Virus record (IMG/VR): IMGVR_UViG_3300045988_158394
DNA length: 64,000 bases
Source: a virus
Lineage: Duplodnaviria > Heunggongvirae > Uroviricota > Caudoviricetes
Reading direction: 5' to 3' (one strand)
Both the position numbers and the translations under genes were made by a program. The notes under the pieces are model-generated. The model saw only the letters and a list, made by a program, of their open reading frames with translations. It searched no databases and was not told where the DNA came from. The stretch's first letter is position 1; each line of letters begins with the position of its first letter. Below, piece by piece: positions 11,663-63,582 of this stretch.

Positions 11663-11679
11663 AATGCTCTAATAAATTT
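11663..11679 (+). promoter_or_regulatory. C1-repressor operator (16/17 match to ATTGCTCTAATAAATTT) ahead of the immI operon
   Basis: AATGCTCTAATAAATTT in the AT-rich intergenic region upstream of c4/icd/ant. Confidence 0.65.
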
Positions 11680-11866
11680 GTATTTTTAAGTCACGAATGC
11701 TATCTTTTCGCATCATATTGACCTTTTAATCGTTCAGGCTTATAGTTCCGCCGTCGTAGCAAATTCTGCGACCGGGTTTAGCAGCCTGAATGATTGTGCG
11801 GACAGCCGCAGATATCCGATATTGCGGTATTTTTGTGTCCGTAAAACCGCGTTACGCCCAAATTAT

Positions 11867-11943
11867 GGTGGGGCGTGATGGGGAGGCTTCGGCCTGCTGG
11901 TTTCACAATCGCCAGTCTGCTAACCCCGTCACGTCCTGCCACC
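11867..11943 (+). ncRNA. c4: c4-type antisense RNA (tRNA-like fold, about 77 nt)
   Basis: GGTGGGGCGTGATGGGG...CCCCGTCACG..CCTGCCACC forms a closed stem; internal CCTGCTGG and TCTGCTAAC are complementary to TAGCAGG and TTTAGCAG just downstream, ahead of icd. Boundaries approximate. Confidence 0.5.
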
Positions 11944-11993
11944 TGTTTAGCAGCGGGTAGCAGGTTGTTAAACCTGATTGTGAGGCCGTAACT

Positions 11994-12215
11994 ATGGTTA
12001 ATGCCAATCCTTGCGCACGCCCAGAATTCATCTGGCGTTTCTATTCCTGTAAAAAACACCACTATCACTTCGTTATCGCAGCAACTGAAGACGAAGCACG
12101 CTCTCAATTGCCTGATGGCCCCTGCATTTTTACTGCCCGTTTTTCAACTAACTCGCGCAATTCACTTAGTTACTGGAGCCTCCCCTTCTCTGCCGACGTT
12201 CAGGGGGTTTTATGA
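11994..12215 (+). CDS. icd: Icd (interference with cell division), 73 aa
   Basis: 73-aa ORF immediately after the c4 region; stop overlaps the ant start (ATGA); same length and position as P1 icd. Confidence 0.7.
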   Translation: MVNANPCARPEFIWRFYSCKKHHYHFVIAATEDEARSQLPDGPCIFTARFSTNSRNSLSYWSLPFSADVQGVL

Positions 12216-13255
12216 AAAAACCTCTCGTCACCCGTAATGACATAGCCGAAGCGATCGCCCTGCATACTGCCTGTATGCCGACACGGGAGATCCCCGGCGC
12301 AATTGCCAACTATTTCATGATAACCAGGCGTTTTTATACCCGAACAGATAAGGCTGTGATCAACAGGCTACTGATAGCCGAGATCAGGGATTATTTGATT
12401 GAACAAGGACGTCTACGTTACGCAACGGTGGCAGCAGAAATGAGAAAGGAGGCACATAGAATGACCAGTAATAATTTGAATGTTAAAAAACCAGCATCTG
12501 TTGCTTCAGCTACGCCATCACCAGCTGTGAATGTTATCTCCAACACTGGAGATACAATCGACAGCCAGACGCTGTTAAAGATGGTTAATGAGGCGCGCAA
12601 GCTATGTGGGGAAAATGAGATCCGCAATAACGATTTTCTCAATAGAATTAAGGATGAACTTGATGGGGAATTTTACGAAACTTTCGTAAAATCCCATGGC
12701 ACAAGGGCCGGGCGCTCTTTTGAGGTCATAACCATGACCTACAAACAAGCCCTGCGAGTCGCCGCGCGCGAGTCAAAAGCGGTCCGCCGTTCGCTGATCG
12801 ACAAACTGGAAGAATTACAGCAGGCAAACTCCCCTACCCCATCGATCCCCCAGACATTACCAGAAGCCCTACGCCTGGCTGCCGAGTTAGCAGAACAGAA
12901 AATGCAGTTGGAACAACAGCTGGTGGCCGCAGCCCCTAAAGTCGATTTTGCCGACCGGGTATCAGTGGCCAATGGAATCCTGATCGGGAACTTTGCAAAG
13001 GTCGTTGGACTTAAGCAAAACGCCCTTTTCTCATGGTTGCGCCAGAATGGCATTCTCATGGCTTTTGGAGCGCGCAAAAACGTACCGCGCCAACAGTACA
13101 TCAACGCCGGGTATTTCACGGTGAAAGAAGTGGTGCTGAATGATGAAAATGGCTACCAGATACGGCTGACGCCCCAATTAACGGGTAAAGGCCAGCAGTG
13201 GTTAACTCGCAAGCTACTTGATGCTGGTTTGTTAAAACCAGTAGCAATAGGTTAA
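12212..13255 (+). CDS. ant1: Antirepressor Ant1, with in-frame internal start giving Ant2 at 12461
   Basis: 347 aa; strong AAGGAGG RBS precedes internal ATG at 12461; C-terminal KilAC-like domain (ILIGNFAKVVGLKQNALF...GKGQQWL). Confidence 0.75.
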   Translation: MKKPLVTRNDIAEAIALHTACMPTREIPGAIANYFMITRRFYTRTDKAVINRLLIAEIRDYLIEQGRLRYATVAAEMRKEAHRMTSNNLNVKKPASVASATPSPAVNVISNTGDTIDSQTLLKMVNEARKLCGENEIRNNDFLNRIKDELDGEFYETFVKSHGTRAGRSFEVITMTYKQALRVAARESKAVRRSLIDKLEELQQANSPTPSIPQTLPEALRLAAELAEQKMQLEQQLVAAAPKVDFADRVSVANGILIGNFAKVVGLKQNALFSWLRQNGILMAFGARKNVPRQQYINAGYFTVKEVVLNDENGYQIRLTPQLTGKGQQWLTRKLLDAGLLKPVAIG

Positions 13256-13332
13256 CAAAAGAAAAAACCTGCCAGCAAACTGGCAGGTTTCTGAGCAGAT
13301 CGTCCAACCCGATCTGGATCGAGTCAGAAAAA

Positions 13333-13349
13333 TTTGCTCTAATAAATTT
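13333..13349 (+). promoter_or_regulatory. C1-repressor operator (16/17) upstream of kilA-repL
   Basis: TTTGCTCTAATAAATTT about 70 bp before the kilA start. Confidence 0.65.
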
Positions 13350-13418
13350 CGTTTTCTAAGTGCAAAGAATCACCATTTCGAGCTGGTGATTGAAGGTTGA
13401 TGCAAATTTGGAGAAAAA

Positions 13419-14219
13419 ATGCAACAAACATTCAATGCGGATATGAATATATCAAACCTTCATCAAAATGTCGATCCTTCAACCACTCTGCCCGTTATTT
13501 GTGGTGTTGAAATTACGACCGACCGCGCTGGCCGTTACAACCTTAATGCTCTACACAGAGCGAGCGGACTCGGTGCCCATAAAGCGCCAGCTCAATGGCT
13601 AAGAACGCTGTCAGCTAAACAGCTCATCGAAGAGCTTGAAAAAGAAACTATGCAGAATTGCATAGTTTCGTTCGAAGGCCGTGGCGGCGGCACTTTTGCC
13701 CATGAATTGCTCGCAGTGGAGTACGCTGGTTGGATTTCTCCCGCGTTTCGGCTGAAGGTAAACCAGACATTTATCGACTATCGAGCCGGAAGATTACAAC
13801 CTGCTATTCCGCAGAGTCTCCCTGAAGCTCTCCGTTTGGCTGCCGACCTGGCAGAGCAAAAGCAACGGCTGGAACAAAAAATGCTTATGGATGCACCTAA
13901 AGTCGAATTCGCCGAACGCGTTGCTACCGCCAGCGGGGTTCTAATCGGCAACTATGCCAAAGTGCTCGGCCTGGGCCAAAACTATCTCTTCACCTGGTTG
14001 CGTGATAACGGAATTCTGATCGCAACCGGTGAACGCAGGAACGTCCCCAAACAAGAATACATATCCCGTGGGTATTTCACCCTTAAAGAAACCGTGATCG
14101 ATACAAGCAATGGAAGCAGGATTTCTTTCACGACTCGTATAACCGGCAAAGGTCAGCAGTGGCTGATGAAGCGATTGCTTGATGCTGGTGTGCTGGTACC
14201 TGTCGCGGCAACGCGCTAA
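13419..14219 (+). CDS. kilA: KilA (KilA-N domain plus KilAC-like C-terminus)
   Basis: 266 aa; N-terminal KilA-N-like segment (YNLNALHRASGLG...AHELLAVEYAGWISPAF); C-terminus paralogous to Ant. Confidence 0.7.
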   Translation: MQQTFNADMNISNLHQNVDPSTTLPVICGVEITTDRAGRYNLNALHRASGLGAHKAPAQWLRTLSAKQLIEELEKETMQNCIVSFEGRGGGTFAHELLAVEYAGWISPAFRLKVNQTFIDYRAGRLQPAIPQSLPEALRLAADLAEQKQRLEQKMLMDAPKVEFAERVATASGVLIGNYAKVLGLGQNYLFTWLRDNGILIATGERRNVPKQEYISRGYFTLKETVIDTSNGSRISFTTRITGKGQQWLMKRLLDAGVLVPVAATR

Positions 14220-15390: not shown

Positions 15391-15464
15391 TACAATCGTT
15401 GCGGGTGCTTGAGGCTATCTGCTTCAGGCATTACCCGAAAAGCAGATAGAAGAAAGCCCCAGAT

Positions 15465-15530
15465 AACATTACGCGTCCTGCAAGACGCTTAACATTAATC
15501 TGAGGCCATATCTATGCTTAGCATACGTAG
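15465..15530 (-). ncRNA. Putative Sok-like antisense RNA (position inferred)
   Basis: Inferred from hok/sok organisation: antisense to the mok-like leader/start region. No promoter verified; boundaries are a guess. Confidence 0.25.
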
Positions 15531-15571
15531 ATTAGCCTCTTACCGACCAAAAGGTCAAGGAGAAGCAGGCT

Positions 15572-15727
15572 ATGAAGCAGCAAAAAGCGATGTTAATCGC
15601 TCTGATCGTCATCTGTTTAACCGTCATTGTGACGGCACTGGTAACGAGGAAAGACCTCTGCGAGGTACGAATCCGAACCGGCCAGACGGAGGTCACTGTC
15701 TTCACAGCCTACGAATCTGAAAGGTAA
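15572..15727 (+). CDS. hok: Hok/Gef-family type I toxin (51 aa)
   Basis: MKQQKAMLIALIVICLTVIVTALVTRKDLCEVRIRTGQTEVTVFTAYESER aligns with Hok; AGGAGA RBS; the overlapping 15514-15720 ORF is the mok-like frame; leader resembles the hok mRNA 5' region. Confidence 0.75.
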   Translation: MKQQKAMLIALIVICLTVIVTALVTRKDLCEVRIRTGQTEVTVFTAYESER

Positions 15728-60376: not shown

Positions 60377-61860
60377 TGGCCAGAAGTTGCGTAACGGATC
60401 CACGTTGGCGCGAGCTGGTGGCGCTATATCGTTATGACTGGATTGCTGCCGCTGATGTTTTGTTCGGCAAAACACCTACCTGGCAGCAGGATCTGATTAT
60501 TGAGTCTGTGCAGGAACAGGGTAGCAAGACATCTGTTTCGTCTGGTCACGGTACCGGGAAATCAGACATGACTTCTATCATGATCATGTTGTTCATAATC
60601 ATGTATCCCGGTGCCCGCGCCATTATCGTTGCGAACAAAATTCAGCAGGTAATGACCGGTATATTCAAGTACATCAAGATAAACTGGGCTACTGCCACCA
60701 GCCGTTTCCCATGGCTTGCTGATTATTTTGTTCTGACAGAAACCGCTTTCTATGAGGTTACTGGTAAAGGTGTATGGACTGTAGTACCGAAGGGCTTTCG
60801 TCTGGGAAGTGAAGAAGCTCTCGCCGGTGAACACGCAGATCATCTTCTGTATATTATCGATGAAGCCTCCGGTGTCAGTGATAGAGCTTTCGGTATCATC
60901 ACCGGTGCTCTTACCGGACAGGATAACCGCATCTTATTGCTGTCACAGCCTACACGCCCAAGCGGCTATTTCTACGATACTCACCATAAACTGGCCAAGC
61001 GTCCTGGTAACCCTGATGGCGTTTATACGGCGATCACGCTTAACAGTGAGGAATCACCGCTGGTAACGCCAGCATTTATCAAAATGAAGCTGGCGGAGTA
61101 CGGCGGTCGCGATAACCCTATGTACATGATTAAGGTACGCGGCCTATTCCCTAAATCACAGGATGGCTTCCTTCTTGGACGTGATGAGGTTGAACGTGCA
61201 ACGCGGCGGAAAGTCAAGATTGCAAAAGGATGGGGCTGGCTTGCATGTGTGGACGTTGCTGGTGGTACGGGACGGGATAAGTCCGTTATCAATATCATGA
61301 TGGTGTCCGGCCAGAGAAATAAACGCCGTGTAATCAACTATCGAATGCTGGAATACACAGACGTTACAGAAACGCAGCTTGCCGCCAAAATTTTCGCAGA
61401 ATGTAATCCTGAGCGATTCCCAAATATTACCATAGCGATAGACGGCGATGGCCTGGGTAAAGCAACGGCGGATCTGATGTACGAGTATTATGGTATTACC
61501 GTACAGCGTATACGCTGGGGTAAAAAGATGCATAGCCGTGAAGATAAGAGCCTGTACTTTGATAAACGTGCTTATGCCAACGTTCAAGCCGCAGAGGCCG
61601 TAAAATCTGGTCGTATGAGACTGGATAAGGGTAATGAAACTATTGAGGAAGCGTCGAAAATCCCTGTAGGGATTAACTCCGCAGGTCAATGGAAGGTGAT
61701 GAGTAAGGAGGATATGAAGAAAAAACTCAACCTGCACTCACCAGACCATTGGGATACATATTGTTTCGCTATGCTGGCGGATTATGTTCCCCAGGACGAA
61801 GTGCTTAGCGTCGAAGACGAAGCGCAGGTTGATGAAGCTCTGGCATGGCTTAATGAATGA
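60376..61860 (+). CDS. pacB: Terminase large subunit PacB
   Basis: 494 aa; Walker-A-like SSGHGTGKS, Walker-B-like [10 protein letters not shown]; start overlaps the pacA stop. Confidence 0.8.
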
Positions 61861-61863
61861 ATA

Positions 61864-61880
61864 TTTGCTCTAATAAATTG
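61864..61880 (+). promoter_or_regulatory. C1-repressor operator (15/17) heading the second immI-like module
   Basis: TTTGCTCTAATAAATTG, 4 bp after the pacB stop. Confidence 0.6.
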
Positions 61881-62011
61881 TGTTTTTTAACTACCGATGT
61901 TACATTGAACCTGACCTCTTGCGCCTTGAGGCATTTTCGGTTTATGCTTATCAGGCACCTCAGTAAAACGGGTGCCGGGATTGAGACCCCGGATAATGCA
62001 AAAGGCGACAC

Positions 62012-62034
62012 AGACGCCAAAAGCGTCTTTTTTT
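62012..62034 (+). terminator. Terminator/attenuator hairpin in the leader of the second immI-like module
   Basis: AGACGC-CAAAA-GCGTCT followed by TTTTTTT. Confidence 0.55.
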
Positions 62035-62083
62035 GTGTCATGCCATCGCACAGCCATACGTAGCGTTTAGCTCAGAGATCAAT

Positions 62084-62159
62084 GGTAGTGCTGGCTGGGC
62101 TGCCGAAAGGCAGGCCGGTTCCCTTTTGCGCCGGTAGTCTCAACCCAGTCAGTGCTACC
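62084..62159 (+). ncRNA. c4-like antisense RNA, second diverged copy
   Basis: GGTAGTGCTGG...CCAGTCAGTGCTACC closing stem with internal hairpins, same position relative to icd' as the first c4; GTCTCAA is complementary to TTGAGAC downstream. Confidence 0.4.
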
Positions 62160-62219
62160 GCCATTGAGATTGAGACCTCACGCGGTAGCTCCTTAAATTA
62201 GCAAAAGGAGGCTGCCATT

Positions 62220-62441
62220 GTGGCTACTATCCCTACCCCTGCTCATCCTGAATTTATCTGGCGCTTTTACTCCTGCCAAAAACGTCACTATCACTTCGTT
62301 ATTGCACCGACAGAAGATGAGGCACGTTCTCAGCTTCCGGATGCTCCCTGTATTTTCTCTGCCCGCTTTTCTACCGATTCGCGCAATTCTCTCAGTTACT
62401 GGTGCCTCCCTGTTAACGCTTCTGCTCAGGAGGGACTATGA
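62220..62441 (+). CDS. Icd paralogue (73 aa)
   Basis: MATIPTPAHPEFIWRFYSCQKRHYHFVIAPTEDEARSQLPDAPCIF... clearly paralogous to Icd at 11994-12215; GTG start after AAGGAGG; stop overlaps the next start. Confidence 0.7.
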   Translation: MATIPTPAHPEFIWRFYSCQKRHYHFVIAPTEDEARSQLPDAPCIFSARFSTDSRNSLSYWCLPVNASAQEGL

Positions 62442-63550
62442 GAACGTCATTAGTCACCCGTGAAGAGATGATCGAGGCAATTGAACAGCACACTGCCTGT
62501 ATCAGTACCAGGGATATACCGGGCGTTATTGCCAACTACTTCATGATCACCAAACAACTTTACCGGAGAAAGGACAAACACGCGGTTCACCGCATTCTGC
62601 TAACCGATATCCGTGAATACCTGCTCGAACAGGGTCATCTGAATTACGCAACCGTCGCAGCCGAAGCACGCAAGGAGGCACACAGAATGAAAGCAACTAA
62701 CGTTAAATCAGAAAAAATTTATGCACCTTCAGTTCAGGAATCGGAACTGGTGGTTGTTCAGAATCAGCCGGATGAAATTCCCGTTCTGGAATGGCAGGGA
62801 GTACGTGTCGTGACAACCGAAACTCTTGCTAGAGGGTATGGGGTCGATGAAGCCAATATTCGCAACAATTTGTCTCGCAACCTTGACCGCTTTGAAGCAG
62901 GTAAGCATTACTTTCTTCTAACTGCTTTAAAATTAAGAGAATTTAAGAACAGAGTAACCGGAAGTTACTCTGTTGGTAAGAACGCCAGAAGCCTTACACT
63001 CTGGACAGAGCGCGGCGCTGCACGCATGTCTAAGATCGTGGACACAAATGAAGCATGGGCATTCTTTGAAAAACTGGAAGACAGCTACTTCCGGCAAAAA
63101 GAACAGCAACCGGTTGCAATCCCCCAGACGCTTCCAGAAGCTCTGCGCCTGGCTGCCGAACTGGCTGAACAAAAGCAGCTTCTGGAACAGAAAGCCCACC
63201 AGCTAAATCAGCAGCTGGTGGCCGCCGCTCCTAAAGTCGATTTTGCCGACCGGGTATCAGTAGCTAAAGGGATCCTGATTGGGAATTTTGCAAAGGTTGT
63301 TGGACTTAAGCAAAACGCGCTGTTTGCCTGGTTACGGGAGAACGGCATCCTGATAGCGTCCGGTGGACGTAAAAATGTGCCGTTCCAGCAGTACATCAAT
63401 GCGGGGTATTTCACGGTGAAAGAAGTGGTGCTGGATGATGAAGATGGCTACCAGATACGGTTGACGCCTCAATTAACGGGTAAAGGCCAGCAGTGGTTGA
63501 CGCGTAAACTGCTCGATGCTGGCTTGTTAAAACCGGTGGCGGCTGAATAA
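62438..63550 (+). CDS. Antirepressor paralogue with Bro-N-like middle domain and KilAC-like C-terminus (internal start at 62687)
   Basis: 370 aa; N-terminal 80 aa paralogous to Ant1; conserved AAGGAGG before internal ATG 62687; central Bro-N-like segment; C-terminus near-identical to Ant1. Confidence 0.7.
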   Translation: MRTSLVTREEMIEAIEQHTACISTRDIPGVIANYFMITKQLYRRKDKHAVHRILLTDIREYLLEQGHLNYATVAAEARKEAHRMKATNVKSEKIYAPSVQESELVVVQNQPDEIPVLEWQGVRVVTTETLARGYGVDEANIRNNLSRNLDRFEAGKHYFLLTALKLREFKNRVTGSYSVGKNARSLTLWTERGAARMSKIVDTNEAWAFFEKLEDSYFRQKEQQPVAIPQTLPEALRLAAELAEQKQLLEQKAHQLNQQLVAAAPKVDFADRVSVAKGILIGNFAKVVGLKQNALFAWLRENGILIASGGRKNVPFQQYINAGYFTVKEVVLDDEDGYQIRLTPQLTGKGQQWLTRKLLDAGLLKPVAAE

Positions 63551-63582
63551 TGGAAGAATGCCCGGTTGATGCCGGGCATAAT

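Follow-up and report, generated by a model that had tools for sequence, protein, structure and literature searches.

Why does a single viral genome carry three genes that end in the same protein block, two of them as direct repeats 50.27 kb apart? We addressed this question for a 64,000-nucleotide stretch of DNA from a virus of the Caudoviricetes (IMG/VR record IMGVR_UViG_3300045988_158394; hereafter the window), in which ant1, kilA and a second ant gene, here termed ant', all encode a C-terminal KilAC domain. The answer that we consider probable is that the window belongs to a P1-like phage-plasmid carrying two paralogous, independently gated antirepressor modules of the immI type in addition to KilA. 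The surroundings of ant1 and kilA share 96% DNA identity with the immI-kilA-repL region of phages P1 and P7, the gene order of the window is collinear with that of the P1-like phage JL22, and the nearest record to the second (ant') locus is plasmid pHNTH9F11-2 (99.8%); judged by these matches, the window is therefore a P1-like phage-plasmid (Punavirus). In a P1 or P7 lysogen, the C4 RNA pairs with the a2 and b2 sites and blocks translation of icd, and hence expression of ant, while Ant that escapes this control inactivates C1.

Three KilAC proteins and two antirepressor modules

As a first-pass annotation of the sequence had proposed, three plus-strand open reading frames (ORFs) share an end block: Ant1 (12212-13255, 347 amino acids, aa), KilA (13419-14219, 266 aa) and Ant' (62438-63550, 370 aa). 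All three match Pfam PF03374 (ANT/KilAC), with expect values (E) of 8.7e-31, 2e-32 and 1.3e-31 and scores of 106.9, 112.2 and 109.5 bits, respectively, against a cutoff of 25.3 bits, and the motifs IPQT/SLPEALRLAA.LAEQK, ILIGNFAKV, GKGQQWL and LLDAG are all present in the block. These scores, together with the alignment, rule out low complexity as the source of the similarity, and the core observation of common KilAC ends is far beyond chance. The high DNA similarity claimed for the two ant copies is likewise borne out, the KilAC blocks of Ant1 and Ant' aligning at 82.4% nucleotide identity over 408 aligned nucleotides (nt) and at 90% aa identity, with one 21-nt indel and longest exact runs of 32, 30, 29, 20 and 17 nt. 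The KilA block shares 64-67% aa and 62-65% nt identity with that of Ant1 or Ant', and its longest exact runs of no more than 11-12 nt rule it out as a recombination partner.

The N-terminal parts of Ant1 and Ant' had been described as unrelated, which proved incorrect. Residues 1-83 of the two proteins are identical at 63% (67% at the nucleotide level), and Met84 is the internal Ant2 start in both, placed as AAGGAGGCACA-N5-ATG. Upstream of each ant lies a 73-aa icd gene; the two are 71% identical, both belong to NCBIfam NF033153, and both overlap the following ant through an ATGA stop/start. Similarity thus spans whole modules (62208-63540 versus 11982-13245, E 2.5e-157), and the difference between Ant1 and Ant' is confined to the middle 125-145 residues. 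In Ant' this middle is an ORF6N domain (PF10543, E 2e-17, 63.7 bits), and the corresponding upstream domain of KilA is KilA-N (PF04383, E 3.7e-21, 75.4 bits); the Ant1 middle matched no Pfam family even at E≤10. Homology between the Ant1 and Ant' middles was detected neither by BLASTP nor by hhalign of 26 versus 33 natural alleles (probability 0.4%). PHROG phrog_1726 matches both middles, and all-against-all clustering linked them solely via 469-aa proteins that have both in tandem. Two IMG/VR loci (L132 and L159) encode a 469-aa Ant of this kind at the canonical immI slot, with the Ant1-type and ORF6N middles in tandem followed by a single KilAC.

The three proteins are accordingly KilAC-domain paralogues with differing upstream domains by their Pfam assignments, and the best-supported reading of the common block is paralogy for Ant1 and Ant' and older domain shuffling for KilA. 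Judged from their sequences, Ant1 and Ant' are close paralogues with three of four segments in common. Shuffling of KilA-N, Bro-N and ORF6N with KilAC in phage regulators was reportedly described by Iyer et al. in 2002. The AriS family (PMC9043618) likewise combines one C-terminal KilAC with alternating N-terminal domains; here, two of the three proteins are instead close paralogues within duplicated regulatory modules. At the level of KilAC domain shuffling, the finding is real but mostly ordinary. What the first-pass annotation overlooked is that the repeats form the ends of two complete regulatory modules.

Module 1 (Table 1) is the immI region (c4-icd-ant1/ant2) of P1 and P7 at the 96% identity given above, and its elements (Oc4, a1, b1, c4, a2, b2, icd, ant1 and ant2) all coincide with those curated for P1. 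Module 2 keeps this order of parts, namely an operator, a leader with a1/b1, C4, a2/b2 over the icd ribosome-binding site, icd and ant, and it is alike in its icd-ant coupling and internal Ant2 start; it differs from the P1/P7 region in its site between pacB and c1, its isrK leader (in place of c4-a1b1), its unrelated loop sequences and its ORF6N Ant middle. Since the pacB-c1 spacer of P1 is just 24 bp, module 2 represents a 1.72-kb insert (61861-63582); c1 was identified from the annotation of JL22, P1 and plasmids. This site is unlike the canonical immI slot upstream of kilA-repL, but location does not define the mechanism, as the same module type is found at the canonical slot in other plasmids. 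A scan with the 17-bp consensus of the C1 operator gave 11 matches in the window versus 0.42 expected, and each module is headed by one of them. Over 31 nt, the module 2 operator region (61860-61890) and the Op53/P53 region before kilA (13329-13359) share 87% identity, a closer match than that to Op51 of module 1.

Several known systems resemble module 2 in part. Its stretch 61954-62281 (leader, C4' and the start of icd') is 95% identical to positions 75117-75444 of phage D6, with the same a'/b' loops; the ant gene downstream in D6 is a different one (942 bp, annotated as Rha/Roi/KilA-like), and its genomic context is not P1-like. D6-like prophages with two c4-icd regions have been reported (PMC6799933). 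The Gifsy-1 IsrK-orf45-AnrP module of Salmonella likewise has a leader that fits the isrK model and ends in a terminator-like hairpin, and likewise a short RNA complementary to a downstream element followed by a coupled small ORF and an antirepressor-like gene; module 2 differs in having a separate C4 RNA and an Icd-like ORF between leader and ant. The pacB-c1 insert of RCS47, pTZ20_1P and JL22 is the same as module 2 (95-99% identity; JL22, 99%; RCS47, 95%), and at a coverage of at least 80% it occurs in 309 of the 758 PLSDB plasmids with matches. Venturini et al. (2019) mention this insert just as two short ORFs and an ant gene, and a study of D6-like prophages records a second c4-icd region at this place. 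None of the accessible papers was found to treat the insert as a full antisense-gated module having an operator and a specificity of its own. The start codon of icd' is GTG in the window, in JL22 and in slot 1 of pO26_EH031_1, and ATG in D6, in pLH85-a-A and in slot 2 of pO26_EH031_1.

Loop specificity and the target of Ant'

Each C4 RNA carries a' and b' loops with exact 7-8-nt complements at its own a1, b1, a2 and b2, and no exact complement of the loops of either C4 was found at the target sites of the other module. Summed over a and b at the a2/b2 region, the calculated duplex energy of the module 1 C4 is -22.6 kcal/mol on its own targets versus -12.4 kcal/mol on those of module 2, and that of the module 2 C4 is -21.6 kcal/mol on its own targets versus -15.7 kcal/mol on those of module 1. 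The loop pair of module 1 is of the P7 type and not the P1 type, and that of module 2 is of the D6 type (Table 1). As the recognition sequences are not in common and the duplex energies favour the cognate pairs, the two switches should be orthogonal, with each RNA gating only its own antirepressor. The loop pairing of the P1 and P7 C4 RNAs and the two-base differences behind heteroimmunity were reportedly described by Citron and Schuster in 1990. In these phages, the a'/b' loops pair with a2/b2 of the icd-ant mRNA, and differences of two bases result in heteroimmunity (PMC12197685).

A survey extended these observations to 159 Icd-encoding loci taken from IMG/VR, of which 156 modules were typed. 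They display 16 loop types: modules with the P1-type backbone have two versions of a' and six of b', and those with the D6/isrK-type backbone have three of each. In every one of the 156 modules, each of the four sites a1, b1, a2 and b2 complements the C4 of that same module. Covariation of targets with loops throughout the 16 types is strong evidence that these interactions are functional. The canonical linked arrangements dominate, with 72 modules entirely of the module 1 type in the immI slot and 39 entirely of the module 2 type in the pacB-c1 slot. The operator core (TGCTCTAATAAAT in module 2) lies at -327 to -355 from the icd start and is kept in 72 of the 75 modules at the immI slot and in 40 of the 47 at the pacB-c1 slot.

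Taken together, these features suggest the following mechanism. Each module would be expressed from a C1-repressible promoter through a leader with the decoys a1 and b1 and a C4 antisense RNA, and its a2/b2 targets cover the ribosome-binding site of the small icd gene, to which ant is coupled, giving a long Ant1 and a short Ant2. Module 1 (11663-13255) would be keyed by P7-type loops and module 2 (61864-63579) by D6-type loops and an IsrK-family leader. With no common recognition sequence between the loops, each C4 would control its own antirepressor only; the lysogen would then be immune to phages of either specificity, and the phage would escape from lysogens in which one or the other C4 is missing. 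By analogy with P1 and P7, C4' would be transcribed and processed and would repress translation of icd' and ant', and the module 2 leader may act like IsrK. Ant' would probably inactivate C1, because it retains the Ant1 N-terminal extension, the Ant2 start and KilAC, and because an Ant of the ORF6N type occupies the canonical immI slot in 25 plasmids. The position of this ORF6N-type Ant beside kilA in 25 complete plasmids, in one of which (pO26_EH031_1) it is the sole intact ant of the immI slot, suggests that it can substitute for Ant1. Homology in KilAC, icd and the Ant N-terminus would allow rare swaps of C4 regions, middles and whole modules between slots and between phages.

Some observations weigh against this reading. 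The Ant' middle is unlike that of Ant1, so Ant' could have another target. If G-U pairs are included, the pairing of non-cognate b' loops can extend to 7-8 nt, and orthogonality between some types is therefore not guaranteed. The candidate promoters of module 2 are weak matches that a stricter consensus scan did not find. No common type or b' loop occurs in any of 25 co-resident pairs (from 21 contigs with two or three modules), a result that is largely trivial given that the immI slot nearly always holds a P1-type backbone and the pacB-c1 slot a D6-type backbone, leaving few informative same-backbone pairs. Finally, module 2 is dispensable: P1 and P7 lack it, and it has undergone deletion or a frameshift in CP099028, in phi456 and in slot 2 of pO26_EH031_1.

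The main rival follows from the first of these points: module 2 would be regulated as described, but Ant' would act on a target other than C1, such as the repressor of another co-resident prophage or a DNA site through ORF6N, or the host SOS response through KilAC. Besides the lack of detectable similarity between the two middles, the JL22 annotation names the homologue Roi, a DNA-binding protein; SOS inhibition is described for the KilAC of Listeria AriS, in a paper that calls the role of this domain in P1 Ant unclear (PMC9043618); and the IsrK-AnrP module of Gifsy-1 acts on another operon (PMC4825925). We nevertheless regard a different target as unlikely, since Ant' keeps the Ant1-specific N-terminal extension, the Ant2 start and a 90%-identical KilAC, since ant' lies under a C1 operator and adjoins c1, and since ORF6N-type Ants are found at the canonical immI slot in 25 plasmids and tandem-middle Ants in L132 and L159.

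Table 1. Elements of the two modules and of kilA in the window (positions from the first letter of the window).
Feature	Position	Strand	Basis
C1 operator of module 1 (Op51/Oc4 equivalent), AATGCTCTAATAAATTT	11663-11679	+	1 consensus mismatch; position of annotated P1 Oc4
Leader with decoys, module 1	11740-11799	+	Rfam RF03163 c4-a1b1, 55.5 bits (match 11740-11792); P1 annotation
Decoy a1, TTAGCAG	11778-11784	+	Complementary to C4 loop; P1 annotation
Decoy b1, GATTGTG	11792-11798	+	Complementary to C4 loop; P1 annotation
C4 antisense RNA, module 1	11861-11946	+	Rfam RF01695, 69.6 bits (gathering threshold 45)
C4 loop b', TCACAATC	11903-11910	+	Same as P7, unlike P1
C4 loop a', CTGCTAA	11917-11923	+	Same as P7, unlike P1
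Targets a2 and b2, the latter over the icd Shine-Dalgarno GAGG	11947-11953; 11976-11983 (span 11947-11983)	+	Exact complements of a'/b'; P1 annotation
icd, 73 aa; stop overlaps ant1 start (ATGA)	11994-12215	+	NF033153, E 4.3e-14; overlap from sequence
ant1, 347 aa; in-frame ant2 start 12461; KilAC block 12845-13252	12212-13255	+	Pfam ANT, E 8.7e-31; 96% DNA identity to P1/P7 immI; Ant2 start per P1 annotation
C1 operator Op53/OrepL, upstream of kilA-repL	13333-13349	+	Operator scan; P1 annotation
kilA, 266 aa; KilA-N aa 27-123; KilAC block 13806-14216	13419-14219	+	PF04383, E 3.7e-21; PF03374, E 2e-32
C1 operator-like site of module 2, TTTGCTCTAATAAATTG, 4 bp past the pacB stop	61864-61880	+	15/17 consensus positions; both mismatches terminal
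Candidate promoter TTGTGT-17-TACATT, -35 overlapping operator as in P51a	61878-61906	+	Sequence reading and alignment to module 1; putative
Candidate promoter TTGCGC-18-TATGCT, P51b position; ends 7 nt ahead of isrK match	61919-61948	+	Sequence reading and alignment to module 1; putative
Leader of module 2, IsrK family	61955-62035	+	Rfam RF01394 isrK, 58.2 bits (gathering threshold 50; match 61955-62033)
Decoy a1', TTGAGAC	61981-61987	+	Complementarity to C4' loop
Decoy b1', GCAAAAGG	61998-62005	+	Complementarity to C4' loop
Terminator-like hairpin and T-run in module 2 leader	62012-62028	+	Hairpin scan
C4' antisense RNA, module 2	62078-62165	+	Rfam RF01695, 75.0 bits (gathering threshold 45)
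C4' loop b', CCTTTTGC, in hairpin loop	62122-62129	+	D6-type specificity
C4' loop a', GTCTCAA	62137-62143	+	D6-type specificity
Targets a2' and b2', the latter over the icd' Shine-Dalgarno GGAGG	62170-62176; 62201-62208 (span 62170-62211)	+	Exact complements; duplex energies favour cognates
icd', 73 aa, GTG start; stop overlaps ant' start (ATGA)	62220-62441	+	NF033153, E 2.6e-13
ant', 370 aa; Ant1-type N-extension aa 1-83; predicted Ant2' start 62687	62438-63550	+	Pfam
ORF6N of ant', aa 116-200	62783-63037	+	Pfam
KilAC block of ant'	63119-63547	+	Pfam
Hairpin terminator between ant' and convergent c1	63558-63579	+	Hairpin scan; c1 stop 63583, minus strand

Exchange between the module copies

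The two ant copies had further been proposed as substrates for homologous recombination that could resolve the segment between them. The first half of this proposal agrees with natural crossovers within the KilAC block; the second half, resolution of the intervening segment, finds no support in what the plasmids contain. Two chimeric queries were built to match as one place only where the predicted joints exist. The query joining the ORF6N middle to Op53/kilA was found joined in the 25 complete plasmids mentioned above, and the query joining the ant1 middle to c1 matched no record at a coverage of at least 80% and three complete plasmids at 77% (pLH85-a-A, CP104510 and CP053046). Inspection covered two of the joined plasmids, pO26_EH031_1 and pLH85-a-A.

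In pO26_EH031_1, a whole unit of the module 2 type occupies the canonical immI slot of a full-size plasmid, which marks it as a replacement and not a deletion. Ninety consecutive module-2-specific sites are followed there by 62 consecutive module-1-specific sites, with the crossover lying within a 17-nt exact run (13149-13165 / 63444-63460), and at the pacB-c1 slot this plasmid carries another module, keyed differently, whose ant' is frameshifted. Plasmid pLH85-a-A has received an Ant1-type middle within a module 2 context, the breakpoints coinciding with the Ant2 start and the 5' edge of KilAC; its pacB flank rules out a deletion product and identifies a cassette swap. Mosaics were found at every common boundary among the IMG/VR loci (L038, L046, L057, L012 and L105), the crossover of L038 lying at the 5' edge of the KilAC block and that of L105 within a 20-nt exact run (13004-13023). 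Since the crossovers of natural mosaics fall cleanly inside it, the KilAC block is a real but rare recombination substrate, and its products in the inspected complete plasmids are cassette or module exchanges. Neither concerted evolution nor gene conversion of ant1 with ant' is borne out, because the identity of the two copies within genomes (0.841, n = 11) equals that between genomes (0.841, n = 110), from which it follows that exchange is rare.

Between the repeats lie kilA, repL, parAB, the plasmid repA, ban, head and tail genes, phd/doc and pacAB, with c1 outside. Resolution would therefore yield one circle with the replicons and no repressor, and another with the repressor and no replicon. 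The complete plasmids inspected contain no deletion joint, and among the approximately 700 complete PLSDB plasmids with matches, the recombinant joints found are in full-size plasmids; together with the parting of c1 from the replicons and the lack of concerted evolution, these observations argue against resolution. It is improbable, in our estimation, that the repeats nonetheless constitute a meaningful rearrangement pathway that resolves or deletes the 50-kb segment. Direct repeats that are 82% identical, have exact runs of 32, 30 and 29 nt and undergo real crossovers would be suitable for it. Furthermore, the draft contig L105 corresponds to the predicted joint, with the immI upstream flank, an ant1-type module, the crossover at 13004-13023 and c1, and L012 (a 25.8-kb contig) joins pacB, a module and the downstream flank of the third slot described below. 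Set against this, the segment holds both replicons, partition, packaging and many structural genes, so that both products are presumably inviable as prophages; the closed plasmids inspected have replacements in full-size genomes; the copies are equally alike within and between genomes; and a divergence of 18% strongly depresses RecA-dependent recombination. Because draft assemblies break at these repeats and chimeric contigs can result, the L105 and L012 joints are leads only.

Joints resembling recombination between different slots were seen in L105 and L109 (both IMG genome 2534681832) and in L012 (contig 2548876964_000006, 25.8 kb), and one of these draft contigs contains pacB, a truncated module 2 and then a complete module-1-like unit. 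Real rearrangements, the co-residence of two elements and chimeric assembly could each account for them.

Persistence and setting of module 2

The ratio of nonsynonymous to synonymous substitution rates (dN/dS) of ant' against other 370-aa alleles is 0.06-0.25 in 11 of 12 comparisons, indicating purifying selection; in the twelfth, dS is only 0.008. Because of this ratio, because 45 of the 47 ant' slot copies are full length, and because an Ant of the ORF6N type is found at the canonical immI slot of 25 plasmids, module 2 is, to judge from its sequence, a functional gene set. That it is a neutral or decaying passenger, a recombination remnant of a D6-like element with no present function, is very improbable: its absence from P1 and P7, its known deletion and frameshift derivatives and the GTG start of icd' in the window would fit such a fate, but all its ORFs are intact and constrained, its loops and all four targets co-vary without exception, its operator is conserved, and it is found in about 40% of the matching P1-like plasmids.

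In CP099028.1 (L005, 2500-2600), the 3' end of pacB runs into the KilAC portion of ant' through a GAAGCTCTG..TGGCT microhomology, which corresponds to 61835-61850 and about 63128-63145 in the window, leaving a 110-aa KilAC-only ORF. The same remnant, annotated 'Ant2', is present in phi456 (L004), where IS1 stands in place of pacAB and the 5' part of module 2. The 24-bp pacB-c1 spacer of P1 (..CCATGCCGGATGG.., L002, 1708-1731) looks like the 3' half of the terminator that closes module 2 (..TGATGCCGGGCAT.., window 63555-63582). This resemblance hints that P1 may have lost module 2 rather than never possessed one.

Heteroimmunity of P1 and P7 through the C4 antisense RNA is the classic two-allele example. 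The window and the 156 typed modules suggest a much larger system, with at least 16 loop combinations, always matched targets and up to three modules per plasmid. A third insertion slot lies between dbn and gene 5 and is empty in the window (36836/36894); the intergenic stretch 36836-36894 holds a stop codon and a terminator hairpin, and a third C4-icd-ant module is located here in the P1-like contigs L090, L083, L087 and others. A tentative generalization, which we put forward as possible, is that P1-like phage-plasmids stack one to three antirepressor modules at the immI, pacB-c1 and dbn/gene-5 slots, each gated by its own C4. The two loops would diversify via coordinated changes at five sites (a1, b1, a'/b', a2 and b2), while loops, middles and modules would reassort at the icd, Ant N-terminal and KilAC blocks. 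The resulting types would act as a heteroimmunity code that decides superinfection, induction and exclusion among P1-like plasmids, many of which carry antibiotic-resistance genes; stacking would be favoured because escape and immunity both become broader, and the IsrK family would represent an a1/b1 leader that sponges C4 RNA.

If the predicted orthogonality holds, the module set of a P1-like plasmid would predict which others it could invade and which it could exclude, which would be relevant to the spread of CTX-M and SHV resistance genes on P1-like phage-plasmids, and the modules would provide a natural set of orthogonal RNA repressor/target pairs. All components come from known families and the insert is common. 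Stacked orthogonal antisense-gated modules and their wider combinatorial specificity receive only passing mention in the accessible literature, and they are of greater interest than KilAC domain shuffling. No report on heteroimmunity or C4 diversity in phage-plasmids was found in the open-access literature, which does not prove that none has been published.

The module also bears on annotation. A RefSeq coding sequence (CDS) for an 'ash family protein' (WP_071527722.1, NZ_CP054193.1) lies exactly over the C4' gene and a2' (window 62082-62201; L008, 1422-1541) and looks like a protein call overlying the C4' RNA gene. By this analysis, the locus under the CDS is an RNA gene, and 'ant/Roi' between pacB and c1 forms part of a complete immunity module.

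Elsewhere in the window, the remaining C1 operator matches (0-3 mismatches) are located at 28288, 31810, 31821, 41714, 45338, 45387, 47480 and 58558, including a bivalent pair at 31810-31837, and their scatter is consistent with the dispersed C1 regulon of P1. A strong match to the sok antitoxin RNA (RF01794, 114.9 bits) lies 3' of repL at 15403-15577, and hokD is annotated at the equivalent place in pO26_EH031_1; by these two indications, a hok/sok-type type I toxin-antitoxin system therefore adjoins the lytic replicon. As in P1, there are three tRNA genes (32495-32567, 32573-32645 and 34120-34192), which are Asn, Thr and Met according to the JL22 annotation.

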